64,000 bases of DNA, from contig NC_043006.1 in assembly GCF_006345805.1 (NCBI RefSeq), positions 5,642,001 through 5,706,000 of the forward strand, written 5' to 3'. Source of the stretch: Octopus sinensis (Eukaryota). The notes below the pieces were generated by a model. It was given only the letters and a program-made list of their open reading frames with translations, had not been told where the DNA came from and ran no database searches. The position numbers were made by a program, and so were the translations under genes. Of this stretch, positions 2,801-54,088 are shown piece after piece. The stretch's first letter is position 1. Each line of letters begins with the position of its first letter.

Positions 2801-4120
2801 CTATTTCTTTACTGCCCACAAGGGGCTGAACACAGAGAGGACAAACAAGGGCAGACAAATGGATTAAGTCGATTATATCGACCCCAGTGCGTAACTGGTA
2901 CTTATTTAATCGACCCCCAAAAGGATGAAAGGCAAAGTCGACCTCGGCAGAATTTGAACTCAGAACATAACGGCAGACGAAATACCTATTTCTTTACTAC
3001 CCACAAGGGACTAAACACAGAGAGGACAAACAAGGGCAGACAAACGGATTAAGTCGATTATATCGACCCCAGTGCGTAACTGGTACTTAATTTATCGACC
3101 CCGAAAGGATGAAAGGCAAAGTCGACCTCGGCGGAATTTGAACTGAGAACGTAACGGCAGACGAAATACCTATTTCTTTACTACCCACAAGGGGCTAAAC
3201 ACAGAGAGGACAAACAAGGGCAGACAAACGGATTATATCGACCCCAGTGCGTAACTGGTACTTATTTAATCGACCCCGAAAGGATGAAAGGCAAAGTCGA
3301 CCTCGGCAGAATTTGAACTCAGAACATAACGGCAGACGAAATACCTATTTCTTTTACTACCCACAAGGGGCTAGACGCAGAGAGGACAAACAAGGACAGA
3401 CAAACGGATTAAGTCGATTATATCGACCCCAGTGCGTAACTGGTACTTATTTAATCGACCCCGAAAGGATGAAAGGTAAAGTCGACCTCGGCAGAATTTG
3501 AACTCAGAACATAACGGCAGACGAAATACCTATTTCTTTACTACCCACAAGGGACTAAACACAGAGAGGACAAACAAGGGCAGACAAACGGATTGAGTCG
3601 ATTATATCGACCCCAGTGCGTAACTGGTACTTAATTTATCGACCCCGAAAGGATGAAAGGCAAAGTCGACCTCGGCGGAATTTGAATTGAGAACGTAACG
3701 GCAGACGAAATACCTATTTCTTTACTACCCACAAGGGGCTAAACACAGAGAGGACAAACAAGGGCAGACAAACGGATTATATCGACCCCAGTGCGTAACT
3801 GGTATTTATTTAATCGACCCCGAAAGGATAAAAGGCAAAGTCGACCTCGGCAGAATTTGAACTCAGAACATAACGGCAGACGAAATACCTATTTCTTTAC
3901 TACCCACAAGGGGCTAAACACAGAGAGGACAAACAAGGGCAGACAAACAGATTAAGTCGATTATATCGACCCCAGTGCGTAACTGGTACTTAATTTATCG
4001 ACCCCGAAAGGATGAAAGGCAAAGTCGACCTCGGCGGAATTAGAACTGAGAACGTAACGGCAGACGAAATACCACAAAGCATTTCGCCCGGCGTGCTAAC
4101 GTTTCTGCCAACCTACCGCC
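2801..4120 (-). mobile_element. Tandem array of 7 Nin/Deu-like SINE bodies with one complete tRNA-derived head
   Basis: Units start at 2801, 2986, 3170, 3345, 3530, 3714 and 3889. Minus-strand motif GCCTTTCATCCTTTCGGGGTCGAT..AAGTACCAG. The 5' part of the head occurs only at 4071-4120. Flanking 17-bp repeats AATAYATTGGATACACC at 2785-2801 and 4125-4141. Confidence 0.9.
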
Positions 4121-9503: not shown

Positions 9504-9601
9504 ATGGCAGCAATTCACGAGGGACCCGAATATGGAATCGGGGATTTTGTTTTACTATCCGACCTCACGTTGGATAGCTTTATGGACAATTTAAAAACTA
9601 G
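9504..9601 (+). CDS. Myo1D: Unconventional myosin ID-like, coding exon 1 (MAAIHEGPEYGIGDFVLLSDLTLDSFMDNLKT-R)
   Basis: ATG at 9504; G-x-x-DFVL...F-M-x-NL motif of myosin I N-termini; donor AG|GTAAGT at 9602; phase 2 matches the exon at 53880. Absent from the ORF track. Confidence 0.9.
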
Positions 9602-23289: not shown

Positions 23290-23442
23290 CCAGAGTAAAC
23301 ACATAAATGTGAAACAAGGTGGAAAAAAGAGTACTCAAATACCAGAGGTACAGTAATATGCTTTATTTAAAGTCCAAACAACGGGAACGTGAAACTCCGA
23401 GTAACAGCTTTTGTTAAATTTCTGCTGCTTTTAAATAAAGTG
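23289..23442. mobile_element. TA-embedded element, deleted sibling of 33927-34152
   Basis: Same left end (GAGTAAACACATAAATGTGAAACAAGG) and right end (AATAAAGTG); keeps ACGGGAACGT-GAAACTCCGAGTA-ACAG. Confidence 0.85.
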
Positions 23443-31830: not shown

Positions 31831-32002
31831 AGGCGTAGGAGTGGCTGTGTGGTAAGTAGTTTGCTTATGAACCACATGGTTCTGGGTTCAGTCCCACTGT
31901 GTGGCACCTTGGGCAAGTGTCTTCTACTATAGCCTTGGGCCGACCAAAGCCTTGTGAGTGGATTTGGTAGACGGAAACTGAAAGAAGCCTGTCGTATATA
32001 TG

Positions 32003-32039
<37 letters not shown>

Positions 32040-32247
32040 TTGTGTCTGTGTTTGTCCCCACAACATCGCTTGACAACTGATGCTGGCGTGTTTACATCCC
32101 TGTAACTTAGCGGTTCAGCAAAAGAAACCGATAGAATAAGTACTAGGCTTACAAAGAATAAGTCCTGGGGTCGATTTGCTCGACTAAAGGCGGTGCTGCA
32201 GCATGGCCACAGTCAAATGACTGAAACATGTAAAAGAGTAAAGAGTA
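31831..32247 (+). mobile_element. CORE-like SINE, full length
   Basis: Head through tail. Confidence 0.92.
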
Positions 32248-32790
32248 CCTTTCCTCCCACACTGAAATATTCATTTTCTCAAAAGCATAAGATACCTTTG
32301 TTTATCAGAACTGTTTCCAAAAATGTCACTTGGTGTTTATCCATTAATTAGTTTTGTAAAGTTTGACTATCTGCTTCCAGGTTTTAGAATGTAATCATTG
32401 TGGATTAGCTCTTCAGCTAAGCCTTTTGTACTTCCTGTCATTGTACCCTACAGCTGAGAGCTTTCAACAATTAACAAAAGAAAATAAGGTGTTACTAACT
32501 CGTCTACATTATGAAAAGCTATTAATCCTGTCATGCTGTAGTCAGATATTTTATAATTCTCTAAGTGGTCGTAATTATCTCGAAAGCATGCTCTCAGTGT
32601 GTGTATCTCCATTAAACAGTCCGACTGTTTACACATTTCTTGTCAGTCAACCAACTTTCGGTCGTAATCTAGGTGTCTGGTGTGTAAGTTTCTGGGAGCC
32701 ATGAAACTGTTGCTTGAATCTGATGCTTTTTTTTTGGCTTTTTTCTCTTTTTTTTTTACCACAAAGGAATTTTCACTATCCATTCATTTT

Positions 32791-33422
32791 GTGCCGGTGG
32801 CACGTAAAAAGCACCATCCGAACGAGGCCGATGCCAGCGACGCCTTGACTGGCTCCTGTGCCGGTGGCACGTGAAAAGCACCAACCAATCGTGGTCATTG
32901 CCAGCCTACCCTGGCACCTAAAAAGCACCATCCGAACGTGGCCGATGCCAGCGACGCCTTGACTGGCTTCCGTGACGGTGGCACGTAAAAAGCACCAACC
33001 GATCGTGGCCATTGCCAGCCTACCCTGGCACCTGTGCCAGTGGCACGTAAAAAGCACCATCCGAACGTGGCCGATGCCAGCGACGCCTTGACTGGCTCCT
33101 GTGCCGGTAGCACGTAAAAAGCACCATCCGAATCGTGGCCGATGCCAGCGCCGCCTCGACTGGCCTCTGTGCTGGTGTCATGTAAAAAGCACCAACCAAT
33201 TGTGGCCACTGCCAGCCTCCCTTGGCACCTGTGCCGGTGGCACGTAAAAAGCAGTCACTACACTGACAGAGTGGTTGGCGTTAGGAAGGGCATCCAGCTG
33301 TAGAAACACTGACAGATCGGACTGGAGCCTGGTGTAGCCTCATGGCTTCCCAGACCCCGGTCAAACTTTCCAACCCATGCCAGCATGGAAAACGGACGTT
33401 AAACAGTGATGATGATGATGAT
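32791..33422 (+). mobile_element. Meta-like (GAT)n-tailed retroposon with about 8 5' tandem units
   Basis: GTGCCGGTGGCACGTAAAAAGCACC recurs about 8 times before the Meta-like motif. Confidence 0.9.
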
Positions 33423-33869
33423 TTTTACATTGCATGATGTTGAAATGTGGTGTCAAATGTAATGGCTAAAATCTACTGGAAATTATCAGTACTGATAAGC
33501 CTAGAACATACAAATATTTCTCAGAGCAGCAAGCTATTACAAAGCTTATCAACAAAGACATTTGAATTTATTATCATAAGCTCTGTAGTTATCAGTTCCT
33601 TCGGAGTTGTTATGTGACTCATAATGGTAACTGTGTACAGAATTAGTTGAGAGACCTATTGAGAGTTACTCTTTTACTTGTTTGTCATCTGACTGTGGCC
33701 ATGCTGGAGCACCGCCTTTAGTCAAGCAAATCAACCCCAAGGGCTTATTCTTTGTAAGCCTAGTACTTATTCTATCGTTCTCTTTTGCCGAACCGCTAAG
33801 TTACGGGGACGTAAACGCACACCACCATTGGTTGTCAAGCGATGTTGGGGGGGACAAACACATAAACAT

Positions 33870-33928
<59 letters not shown>

Positions 33929-34030
33929 GGAGTAAACACATAAATGTGAAACAAGGTGGAAAAAAGAGTACTCAAATACCAGTGGTAGAGTAATATGCTT
34001 TATTTTAAGCAGCAGAAAATTCAACAAAAT

Positions 34031-34068
34031 CTGTTACTCTGAGTTTCTCGTTGCCGTTCATCAGACAG
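34031..34068 (-). ncRNA. Minimal type I hammerhead ribozyme motif
   Basis: Minus strand CTGT-CTGATGA-ACG-GCAA-CGA-GAAA-CTC-A-GAG-TA-ACAG; stem I CTGT/ACAG; GUA site; stem II base mismatched (A-A). Confidence 0.8.
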
Positions 34069-34080
34069 TTTTTGCTAGAA

Positions 34081-34117
34081 TGTCTGATGAACGGCAACGA
34101 GAAACTCAGAGTAACAG
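34081..34117 (+). ncRNA. Minimal type I hammerhead ribozyme motif (inverted twin)
   Basis: TGT-CTGATGA-ACGGCAACGA-GAAA-CTCAGAG-TA-ACAG. Confidence 0.78.
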
Positions 34118-34884
34118 ATTTTGTTGAATTTTCTGCTGCTTAAAATAAAGTGTATATATATATATACATATATATACACGACAGGCTTCTTTCAGTTTCC
34201 GTCTACCAAATCCACTCACAAGGCTTTGGTTGGTTCGAGGCTATAGTAGAAGACACTTGCCCAAGGTGCCACACAGTGAGAATGAACCCAGAACTATGTG
34301 GTTGGTAAGCAAGCTACTTACCACACAGCCACTCCTGCACCTATAATTTAGCCTTTAGTTTTCACTGTTGCTGCAGATTATGAACATGAAATAGTATACT
34401 TCTGTTGAAATGAGTTCAAATATTGACCCTAGGTTTTATTACTTCAATCTAGTTTTAAAATTGACAGATGTATTGTTGTCTAGTTTCAAGTCAGTGCAAT
34501 TCAGGAATTTTATATCTAGAAAATTTGAACTAAACATATAGCGATATCATCATCCTCATTTAGTGTCCCATGAGTTGGACAGTTTGACTAGAGCTGGCAA
34601 GCTGGTTCCGGTCTGATTTGGCATGGTTTCTATGCCTGAATTTCTTTCCTAATGCCAACCACTTTACAGTGTGTGCTGGGTGCTTTTTATGTGGCACTAG
34701 AACAGGTGATTTTTGCATTGCATTGGCTTGGGTGTTTATTATGCAGACTGGTACAGGTGCATTTTTCATGGACCAATACAGGTGTTTTTCATGTGAATTA
34801 GCACAAGGGAGCTTGCAAGGCAAAAACCTCTTCAGATTGGAGAAGAGTCTAATAACGAGACAACATATGTGTGAGTATGTATTA

Positions 34885-37560: not shown

Positions 37561-40504
37561 TGAGTGTAGTGGGTGCTTTTTACGTGCCACCAGTACAGGT
37601 GCCAGGCGAGGCTGGCAACGGCCACGATCGGTTGGTGCCTTTTACGTGCCACCAGCACGGAGTCCAGTCGAGGTGGCGCTGACATCTTCACGTTCGGATG
37701 GTGCTTTTTACGTGCCACTGGCACTGGTATCCGTTAGTATAATTGATATCACAAGTTACTTGCGATGACTAAGTAACAGAAAGTTTATGTTTTTGCTGAA
37801 AAGCCTTCAAGATAACGAGAATACATCAAGAGAGAGAGAGTAAAAGTTATTAGTCATCAAAAAGAAAAAAAAATAAATGTAATATTCCTTTAGTTGCTTA
37901 ATGGTCTAGTCATTAAATGTGTAACATGAACTCATTTCCACATTAGAATTTGCCCTGCCTAAAAAGCAGTATTAAAGCAGGTATTGTCAAGTATTTGTAT
38001 CATACAGTTGTGGTGGTCAAGTGATATTTCAAGGAAATGACTAACCAAAGATAGTGTTTTGATGCCTTTTTTTATTTTTTTATGAAATCATGTCATACCA
38101 AAAATATTTTGTAAAAAAATACAAAAATGGCGACACTGGTTATGACCTCCATTTTATGAGTTTATCTCGGTAATTAATATTATTTGCAAGTGAGAGACTT
38201 TTCTGATGTTAAAAAGAGCAACTGAAATGACCCTCATTCTTTATTGGCCAACACCCAAGTGATAAGATTGAACAATAATCATAACTAAATGCTATCTCAG
38301 CTGAGGAAAGTCAGACATCAGGTTTAGTATAAAAGCATACAACACTCAATTGTTTCATTGGATTATGATTAGAGAAGTGTATTATCAGTAATTGCATTTA
38401 TACCTCATATCTTTAATGAGCAGATAACTACGAAGCAGGTAAAACAGGTAAAAGTCAATGGTCATTAAAAAAATGTTGCTCAATAAACTGAGACACCATT
38501 TAATTAATTTGTTATATTTCTTGAGAAATGTGACATAAAACCAAGAGAGCAAAGAAAAATTAATTGCATCATCGTTTAACGTCCGCTTTCCATGCTAGCA
38601 TGGGTTGGACGTATGACTGAGGGCTGGCTGCACCAGGCTTCAATCTTGATCTGGCAGAGTTTCTACAGCTGGATGCCCTTCCTAGTGCCAAACGTTATAT
38701 CAGTAGAAAAGGCGTAGGTAGAAACTCTATAAGATGCACCAAGTGTAAGCTATGGACACATAAGAGGTGCAGCAATATCAAAGGAAGGCAAACTGGGAAG
38801 ATAGTTTTTGAATGTGGCAGATGCTCAGGAGCAATAAACACTGAAAATGTGCAGAGAACGACTTCCGCCACATTCATCATCATCATCATCATCGTTTAAC
38901 GTCCGTTCTCCATGCTAGCATGGGTTGGACGGTTCGACCGGGGATCTGGGAAGCCAGAAGGCTGCACCACGCTCCGGTCTTATCTGGCAAAGTTTCTACA
39001 GCTGGATGCCCTTCCTAACGCCAACCACTCCATGAGTGTAGTGGGTGCTTTTTACGTGCCACCAGTACAGGTGCCAGGCGAGGCTGGCAACGGCCACGAT
39101 CGGTTGGTGCCTTTTACGTGCACCAGCACGGAGTCCAGTCGAGGTGGCGCTGACATCTTCACGTTCGGATGGTGCTTTTTACGTGCCACTGGCACTGGTA
39201 TCCGTTAGTATAATTGATATCACAAGTTACTTGCGATGACTAAGTAACAGAAAGTTTATGTTTTTGCTGAAAAGCCTTCAAGATAACGAGAATACATCAA
39301 GAGAGAGAGAGTAAAAGTTATTAGTCATCAAAAAGAAAAAAAAATAAATGTAATATTCCTTTAGTTGCTTAATGGTCTAGTCATTAAATGTGTAACATGA
39401 ACTCATTTCCACATTAGAATTTGCCCTGCCTAAAAAGCAGTATTAAAGCAGGTATTGTCAAGTATTTGTATCATACAGTTGTGGTGGTCAAGTGGTATTT
39501 CAAGGAAATGACTAACCAAAGATAGTGTTTTGATGCCTTTTTTTAATTTTTTTATGAAATCATGTCATACCAAAAATATTTTGTAAAAAAATACAAAAAT
39601 GGCGACACTGGTTATGACCTCCATTTTATGAGTTTATCTCGGTAATTAATATTATTTGCAAGTGAGAGACTTTTCTGATGTTAAAAAGAGCAACTGAAAT
39701 GACCCTCATTCTTTATTGGCCAACACCCAAGTGATAAGATTGAACAATAATCATAACTAAATGCTATCTCAGCTGAGGAAAGTCAGACATCAGGTTTAGT
39801 ATAAAAGCATACAACACTCAATTGTTTCATTGGATTATGATTAGAGAAGTGTATTATCAGTAATTGCATTTATACCTCATATCTTTAATGAGCAGATAAC
39901 TACGAAGCAGGTAAAACAGGTAAAAGTCAATGGTCATTAAAAAAATGTTGCTCAATAAACTGAGACACCATTTAATTAATTTGTTATATTTCTTGAGAAA
40001 TGTGACATAAAACCAAGAGAGCAAAGAAAAATTAATTGCATCATCGTTTAACGTCCGCTTTCCATGCTAGCATGGGTTGGACGTATGACTGAGGGCTGGC
40101 TGCACCAGGCTTCAATCTTGATCTGGCAGAGTTTCTACAGCTGGATGCCCTTCCTAGTGCCAAACGTTATATCAGTAGAAAAGGCGTAGGTAGAAACTCT
40201 ATAAGATGCACCAAGTGTAAGCTATGGACACATAAGAGGTGCAGCAATATCAAAGGAAGGCAAACTGGGAAGATAGTTTTTGAATGTGGCAGATGCTCAG
40301 GAGCAATAAACACTGAAAATGTGCAGAGAACGACTTCCGCCACATTCATCATCATCATCATCATCGTTTAACGTCCATTCTCCATGCTAGCATGGGTTGG
40401 ACGGTTCGACCGGGGATCTGGGAAGCCAGAAGGCTGCACCAGGCTCCGGTCTTATCTGGCAAAGTTTCTACAGCTGGATGCCCTTCCTAACGCCAACCAC
40501 TCCA
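37561..40504. repeat. Tandem duplication of a 1,472-bp unit (37561-39032 and 39033-40504)
   Basis: About 5-6 differences by eye; bounded by Meta-like elements at 37402-37727, 38875-39198 and 40346-40727. Confidence 0.95.
38699..38875 (+). mobile_element. RTE-type LINE fragment encoding a PHD-like zinc finger (second copy 40171-40347)
   Basis: My translation: ISRKGVGRNSIRCTKCKLWTHKRCSNIKGRQTGKIVFECGRC. Confidence 0.72.
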
Positions 40505-53879: not shown

Positions 53880-54088
53880 GTTTCAGAAAAATCGAGTTTA
53901 TACTTACATTGGTGAAGTGGTTGTTTCATTGAATCCTTACAAATCCATGGAAATCTATGGAGAAAGCTATATATCAGAGTACAAAGGCAGAGAGCTATAT
54001 GAGCGTCCACCCCATATATTCGCCCTTGCAGACAGTGCTTATAAAACGATGAAACGCACAAACAAAGATACTTGCATTGTGATATCAG
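53880..54088 (+). CDS. Myo1D: Myosin ID-like coding exon 2 (motor domain)
   Basis: TTTCAG|G acceptor; [20 protein letters not shown]...[26 protein letters not shown]...DTCIVISG; G|GTAAGT donor; 209 nt. Confidence 0.96.

Follow-up and report, generated by a model that had tools for sequence, protein, structure and literature searches.

A palindrome with hammerhead motifs on both strands in an octopus myosin intron is almost certainly an insertion of a young Penelope-like retroelement

The insertion units of EN+ Penelope-like elements (PLEs) are known to include an inverted, 5′-truncated copy and a tail at one end (Craig et al. 2021, PMC8557442, Fig. 2; Arkhipova et al. 2013, PMC3846280), and their junctions have been read as self-priming on an antisense template (Arkhipova 2013, PMC3846280). 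The RWK, DKT, CxCX5C, CxxC and CxH motifs define the Hydra clade, which also targets (TA)n (Craig et al. 2021, PMC8557442). Hammerheads on opposite strands have likewise been described, since dual minimal ribozymes lie about 100–700 bp apart in this way in Schistosoma (Cervera and de la Pena 2014, PMC4209133). The protein of PAc, a Poseidon element described from the green anole, is a predicted dimer that in vitro cuts both target strands and extends them, starts at two internal sites bounding the tail, and needs no ribozyme cutting to do so (Frangieh et al. 2024, PMC11167929). Related literature is found in PMC6765202, PMC13282606 and bioRxiv 10.64898/2026.07.22.740005.

The palindrome described here lies in a 64-kb stretch of octopus DNA (the window, numbered from its first letter). 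It shares with the published EN+ units a head-to-head inverted copy, a one-end tail, a palindromic or microhomology junction and a microsatellite target, but both copies are cut to their last 70–156 nt with the ORF gone, the tail is 71 nt long as against the 30–40 nt given in those papers, and such miniature units (mini-palindromes) make up a third of the young insertions sampled. With Hydra-2_Amil, Penelope-13_HM and Hydra-1_Obim, as entered in Files S1 and S2 of PMC8557442, the parent of the palindrome has in common all five clade motifs, a C-terminal endonuclease and the (TA)n target. The hammerhead listed for Hydra-2_aMil agrees with the present one in the 4-bp core of stem I and in the arms of helix III, and the entry for Penelope-13_HM gives an inverted copy along with hammerheads on both strands (File S2). 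The present unit differs from the clade in its 3.36-kb length with a 1-kb 3′ UTR, and in a stem II of 2–3 bp, shorter than most of those listed. The octopus family Hydra-1_Obim has another hammerhead and is therefore distinct from the present family; two 11-letter motifs of the latter are absent from the supplement text of PMC8557442 that was searched, and it may already be catalogued.

Like the minimal PLE hammerheads of PMC4209133, the ones in the palindrome are of type I with a palindromic helix III suited to dimers, but their cores are 20 nt apart, stem I of the parent has 15 bp, and the minimal stem II lacks the G10.1–C11.1 pair. The resemblance to PAc lies in two internal reverse transcription starts that bound the tail just downstream of the hammerhead, and in an AT-rich target of which both strands are extended; PAc, however, belongs to another clade and has its start sites inside the ORF, whereas here they would fall in the 5′ UTR, and in the available text of that paper the inverted arm is not traced to two-ended priming. 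Our search for a published model of two-ended priming in PLEs, which reached few subscription journals, found none on the topic beyond PMC3846280. As far as these sources go, the inverted copy, the tail and the opposite-strand hammerheads have all been published before, and the insertion appears to be of a known kind from an additional family.

Anatomy of the palindrome and its parent element

The two 70-bp arms (33998–34067 and 34081–34150) are exact reverse complements separated by 13 nt, as the first-pass annotation of this DNA had described, and sequence comparison showed that the pairing ends at the outer edges on both sides. The 13-nt spacer, which had been taken for a loop, is additional parent sequence and part of a longer arm. 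The folding energy of the element (−132.8 kcal/mol) is far below that of 200 shuffled sequences (−44.1 ± 4.2 kcal/mol, z = −21). The insertion measures 224 bp (33927–34150) and sits within (TA)n (33886–33926 on the left and 34151–34175 on the right), in which a target-site duplication is unreadable. The last two bases of the previously given range of 33927–34152 look like flank.

For describing the arms we have numbered the parent from the C of CATTCTAG, which is position 0 and corresponds to window position 34082 on the minus strand. The palindrome is asymmetric, with a 71-nt tail on one side only (33927–33997, minus strand), and this tail is the stretch of parent sequence bounded by the two fixed points at which 3′ ends fall; where parents stand in tandem, it continues into the 5′ UTR and then into the ORF start at about +223. 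The long arm (33998–34082, minus strand) covers parent positions 0 to +84, including the full 15-bp stem I and AATAAA, and reaches +155 together with the tail. The short, tail-less arm (34081–34150, plus strand) covers +15 to +84 and ends just past AATAAA (34144–34149), and the two arms overlap by 2 nt (TG/CA microhomology, 34081–34082). The short arm places its AATAAA on the sense strand of the myosin gene discussed below, without the U-rich downstream stretch of the element. Each strand carries CTGATGA...GAAAC...GTA, so that the earlier claim of a hammerhead on each strand is borne out at the level of the core motif: the core of the long arm lies at 34064–34058 with a predicted cut between 34035 and 34034 on the minus strand, and a minimal type I hammerhead is predicted from sequence and folds at 34084–34116 on the plus (myosin) strand. 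Rfam searched at the gathering score gave no match anywhere in the 64-kb window.

The palindrome is far from unique. A 226-bp query covering it yielded 81 matches, from 40 scored candidates, and an arm 25-mer matched exactly 3,097 times in the 2.72-Gb genome (reversed control, 0). Many near-identical copies are 215–250 bp long, and the 30 best copies all lie in TA-rich repeats and have the same one-sided 71-nt extension at the start, with differing centres. Elsewhere, arms 3–5 kb apart enclose a coding element: the arms are 97–100% identical to the ends of seven such loci (L071–L077) and co-linear with the 3′ end of a 3.36-kb parent, which by its motifs encodes a reverse transcriptase (RT) and a GIY-YIG endonuclease (the frame of L075 has YRDD and a C-terminal VVY..YTG segment). 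No match was obtained in Pfam with two parent frames or in the PDB with one. The parent protein of about 710 aa is similar in length to its homologues, of which 2,592 were found among 7,996 scored candidates; nearly all are without a name, and one bears PF01541. Tandem or partial-tandem copies (pseudo-LTRs) at L073 and L153–L156 give a unit of 3,360 nt in the order ribozyme, AATAAA, tail, 5′ UTR, ATG (+222 to +224), ORF and 1-kb 3′ UTR. An intact ATG-to-stop copy was not seen among the long copies examined.

The parent protein contains RWK and DKT as well as the CxCX5C linker, CxxC and CxH (CNCKSESSC, CKLC and CRH in L075; L073 and L072 have CNF at the second C of the linker). As in Hydra elements, the target is (TA)n and a hammerhead lies close to the 3′ end; the 3,360-nt unit exceeds the length of under 3 kb that is general in that clade. 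From these motifs the parent would belong to the Hydra clade. A metagenome relative with 45% protein identity (L157) is laid out in the same way, but the hammerhead in its two ends is a different one; in L157 (positions 265 and 3024) and in another such relative, L158 (position 246), the hammerhead stems differ while the 9-nt palindromic helix III is identical.

Judged from the RT/GIY-YIG protein, the pseudo-LTRs, the inverted truncated copy and the one-end tail, the insertion is that of an EN+ PLE, and by sequence the palindrome is two 5′-truncated copies of the ribozyme-bearing end of this element, head to head. That it is a single insertion of a young PLE with Hydra-clade motifs is thus almost certain. 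The first-pass annotation had missed that it was looking at the stub of an abundant retroelement. An artefact of assembly, which that annotation had named as fatal to its reading, is unlikely, because the same junction occurs at 11 loci and short-read contigs of another run carry head-to-head joints with different junctions. When other individuals were compared for presence of the insertion at 33927–34150, the contigs stopped at the flanking repeats and left out the TA runs.

Sampled insertions of the family

We have collected the 75 loci that contain the first 100 of 2,401 matches of a young-subfamily 41-mer, all on one contig; the exact match from +15 to +55 that was demanded hides shorter arms. 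They comprise 25 mini-palindromes, 19 longer head-to-head pairs, 28 loci with one arm only and 3 others, which by rough scaling would correspond to about 600 young mini-palindromes genome-wide. Exactly one tail is present in 43 of the 44 head-to-head pairs (the alignment of the remaining pair stopped early) and two tails in none. The arms end at two fixed 3′ points, 71 nt apart: AATAAAG is followed directly by TATATA in 50 of 102 cases and by the tail in 41, and the tail by CGG and then TATATA in 34 of 45. Outside this sample, one locus (L031, 5961–6608) contains three 246-nt head-to-tail units with an inverted arm.

The junctions, on the other hand, vary between copies, and there is a continuous size series up to full-length arms. 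Among 34 close junctions, 20 overlap by 1–6 nt, 5 abut and 9 have extra bases. The exact junction of the window is found in three subfamilies, with the tail on the long arm at 6 of its 11 loci and on the short arm at 5. Over the 44 pairs, the longer arm is the one with the tail in 10 and the tail-less one in 11, the two start within 3 nt of each other in 15, and 8 could not be resolved. A second, older insertion of the same family in the window (23290–23442, minus strand) has the stem II of the oldest subfamily, and its tail arm is cut just past AATAAA and joined to a tail-less arm beginning within the ribozyme core. The central base of its helix III is C instead of A, as expected if this base is an unpaired mismatch in the dimer. 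In four loci of older subfamilies (L162, L164, L165 and L209) a second hot spot of joining surrounds a short palindrome about 20–30 nt upstream of the ribozyme.

For arm identity we have used 59 insertions, one pair each, after removing 20 locus ids that denoted repeat places; the set is biased towards likeness to the window. Arms of one insertion differ by 1.03 substitutions, compared with 2.66 for shuffled partners (minimum 2.10 in 2,000 shuffles), and they agree at the three commonest subfamily sites in 57 of 59, 57 of 58 and 54 of 55 pairs. Identical arms occur in 27 of the 59 insertions, 42 of 116 other arms are identical to that of the window, and 61 substitutions are confined to one arm as opposed to only 2 private changes shared by both (L015 and L026). 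Likeness within pairs together with these one-arm substitutions therefore shows that both arms of an insertion come from one source and then drift apart, the perfect identity in the window reflecting youth. Of the two explanations offered earlier for this identity, a young insertion is the one that survives; arm homogenisation does not agree with the one-arm substitutions. The three subfamilies (L001–L087) are distinguished at arm positions +19, +22, +29, +34, +52 and +76, the oldest having CCGACGA with A-U closing stem II, the middle one CCGATGA with A-G, and the youngest CTGATGA with A-A; a canonical core together with a closed stem II was almost never seen.

The positions at which arms begin are also strongly clustered. 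Out of 119 arm starts, 56 fall at 0 to +20, spread over 17 positions and stopping at +1, with only 3 at −20 to −1 and 4 at +21 to +60. Genome-wide, 41-mers starting at +28, +15, +4 and −4 have 2,578, 2,401, 1,622 and 1,029 matches, counts that combine truncation with mutation and sequencing error, and a 35-mer at +50 has 2,967. The 41-mer at −4 was used in place of another upstream one with 264 matches, whose first base differs among subfamilies. Microhomology shapes the peak of starts, because 12 of the 56 lie on CTAG, a 4-bp palindrome at +4. As a possible trace of a cap, a G before +1 was looked for; it is present in 17 of 35 young rows (from the first 100 of 672 matches), but for the majority of the inspected cases it comes from the partner arm. 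The A of CCATTCT in the parent, a sequence that we take to resemble an initiator, falls at position +1 (34081, minus strand); such motifs occur 4–6 times in 310 nt of the parent, so this match alone is weak.

Origin of the head-to-head arms

The reading that we prefer, and that probably gives the full best explanation, is a single insertion made by priming from both cut ends of the target. The element mRNA would start at about +1, 223 nt upstream of the ATG; the enzyme would cut both strands of (TA)n, and cDNA would be initiated at two internal sites, +85 and +156, one per target end. If these sites were used near the mRNA 5′ end, both cDNAs would come to the end of the template within 85 and 156 nt at most, be trimmed and then anneal by microhomology into a mini-palindrome, while their use one unit downstream on a tandem transcript would give the long arms. 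The hammerhead would be a passenger in all this. Either arm can be the longer one and the arms stop abruptly at an initiator-like site, a combination that would favour priming from both target ends near the mRNA start; the 28 of 75 loci at which a single arm was seen count against the mechanism. We hold two-ended priming by itself with nearly the same confidence as the whole explanation, whereas an RNA start at about +1 is only a little better than an even bet, and the chances are evenly balanced that the mini-palindromes are a direct genomic record of one mRNA, two priming sites 71 nt apart and run-off with microhomology sealing.

The published self-priming model would have one cDNA, or an antisense RNA as proposed by Arkhipova (2013), fold back on a short inverted repeat so that the second arm is copied from the first. 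This is the reading favoured in print (PMC3846280), and it explains the common subfamily of both arms, the two private changes found in both, and the 15 of 36 resolved pairs whose arm starts are at most 3 nt apart and often fall on a short palindrome. Its difficulty is that a copy cannot exceed its template at both ends, while in 11 of the 36 resolved pairs the arm without a tail extends further 5′ and the tail sits on the other arm; the identical junction occurring both ways round at 11 loci is a similar difficulty. Some of these cases could be accounted for if recombination had later inverted the spacer; we regard fold-back as improbable overall. The near-identical 215–250-bp copies, the junction common to 11 loci and two palindromes in tandem at one locus (L055) might instead point to a palindromic mini-element in its own right, resembling a MITE or retrozyme and copied as a whole. 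But junctions that differ between copies, the continuous size series to full-length arms, the asymmetric ends and a common junction that crosses both subfamilies and orientations make this scarcely credible. A MITE was also rejected as such, as symmetric terminal inverted repeats and a fixed interior are absent, and so was a non-LTR retrozyme: the arms are the co-linear ends of a coding parent, and 3 of the 75 loci are neither simple head-to-head nor single. The two mini-palindromes at L055 (1374–1897) lie 299 nt apart.

Concerning the cluster of arm starts, RNA structure or joining preferences, instead of an RNA 5′ end, might produce the pile-up from +1 to +20. Stem I spans +1 to +17 and coincides with the cluster, and the stretch, which forms the 5′ strand of this stem, is rich in short palindromes, with CTAG alone accounting for the 12 starts mentioned above. 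A polymerase moving 3′ to 5′, however, would first run into the 3′ strand of stem I, at +65, and few arms end there; the 41-mer counts drop by only 7% from +28 to +15, and the starts are spread over 17 positions and then stop at +1. We therefore consider this explanation rather unlikely. Stalling of the polymerase at stem I, our first reading of the cluster, was demoted because the polymerase meets the other strand of the stem first.

If priming from both target ends is correct, the tail, the inverted arm and the mini-copies would be explained in one step, replacing the antisense self-priming model; the promoter of a Hydra element would have been mapped from DNA alone, and the parent family would give rise to hundreds of perfect RNA duplexes within introns. 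The family bears on the open question of how PLEs produce inverted, one-tailed insertions. With its fixed 3′ ends, sharp 5′ limit and symmetric arm lengths it constitutes a large natural dataset on Penelope insertion, and its hundreds of near-identical independent events give exact predictions for a test-tube assay of a Hydra-clade enzyme, namely that the start is at +1 and that priming occurs at +85 and +156.

Predicted ribozyme and host gene

According to the folds, stem I of the long arm can reach 15 bp and stem II has 2 bp capped by a GCAA loop; helix III is a palindrome of 9 nt, which pairs with itself (−7.4 kcal/mol) and suits dimer folding. Stem II and helix III are of the same form in the copy on the myosin strand. 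The hammerhead fold has an energy of −8.8 against −13.5 for the minimum, which itself is only about one standard deviation below shuffles. Both arms have the core CUGANGA, GAAA and UH (the older subfamilies start with CCGA), but stem I has 15 bp on the minus-strand arm and just 3 bp on the plus-strand arm, which starts at +15 and has its predicted cut at 34113/34114. The purine-pyrimidine 10.1–11.1 pair that closes stem II is absent in the window, where an A-A mismatch is found at the stem II base (34091/34100 in the myosin-strand copy); among about 118 arms, 18 have A-G and 8 have A-U. A mismatch at this base is present in L157 and in many of the Hydra hammerheads listed in File S2 of PMC8557442, so it need not mean decay of what is a predicted hammerhead.

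In the full palindrome the pair probabilities of stem I fall below 1e-44, compared with 0.43–1.0 in the isolated long arm, so the hairpin would mask the predicted ribozyme. Burial of the fold, as the first-pass annotation had supposed, is thus reproduced in the model, but the myosin-strand ribozyme, with its 3-bp stem I, leaves little to mask.

The gene itself, which the first-pass annotation had called Myo1D, is a class I myosin gene on the plus strand. Its first coding exon (9504–9601) matches myosin-Ib residues 10–33 weakly (E 1.4–1.5) and the next exon (53880–54088) matches residues 34–101 (E 1e-19); these residues are consecutive, and the 44.3-kb intron between the exons contains the palindrome, in line with the intronic location proposed before. 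It might therefore be asked whether the host has selected the hairpin for silencing a ribozyme in the myosin pre-mRNA, or for feeding ADAR or Dicer to regulate the gene. The location in the intron and a 70-bp duplex that would form from either strand speak for this. Against it stand the distance of about 20–24 kb to either exon, an arm that is the commonest young arm sequence (shared by the 42 other arms noted above), membership in an estimated 600 young mini-palindromes, and a sense-strand ribozyme without most of stem I. We consider such selection extremely improbable. Any host role is unlikely, because the myosin-strand ribozyme retains just 3 bp of stem I and lacks the upper 5′ strand of that stem, and the regulatory role suggested for it is left unsupported. 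Use of the hairpin by ADAR or Dicer is plausible, as it would be for any such hairpin. A T-to-C change inside one arm, in contigs guessed to be RNA, is a subfamily variant that is present in DNA too, and one raw-read run, sampled at 3 in 100 reads, gave 8 reads, all on the tail. As a locus the palindrome is of little importance, a young transposon scar; it also serves as a caution that such palindromes resemble designed twin-ribozyme switches yet arise mechanically.

The surroundings of the insertion are themselves rich in repeats. Two very high-copy short repeats lie on either side of the palindrome (33650–33880 and 34175–34345), the left one having an inverted copy at about 32000–32220, and a tandem array of 62–68-nt units occupies 32775–33253, further copies being present in other parts of the window. 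Local tandem duplications are suggested by identical stretches at 38301 and 39773, which lie 1,472 nt apart, and at 3008 and 3552, which lie 544 nt apart.
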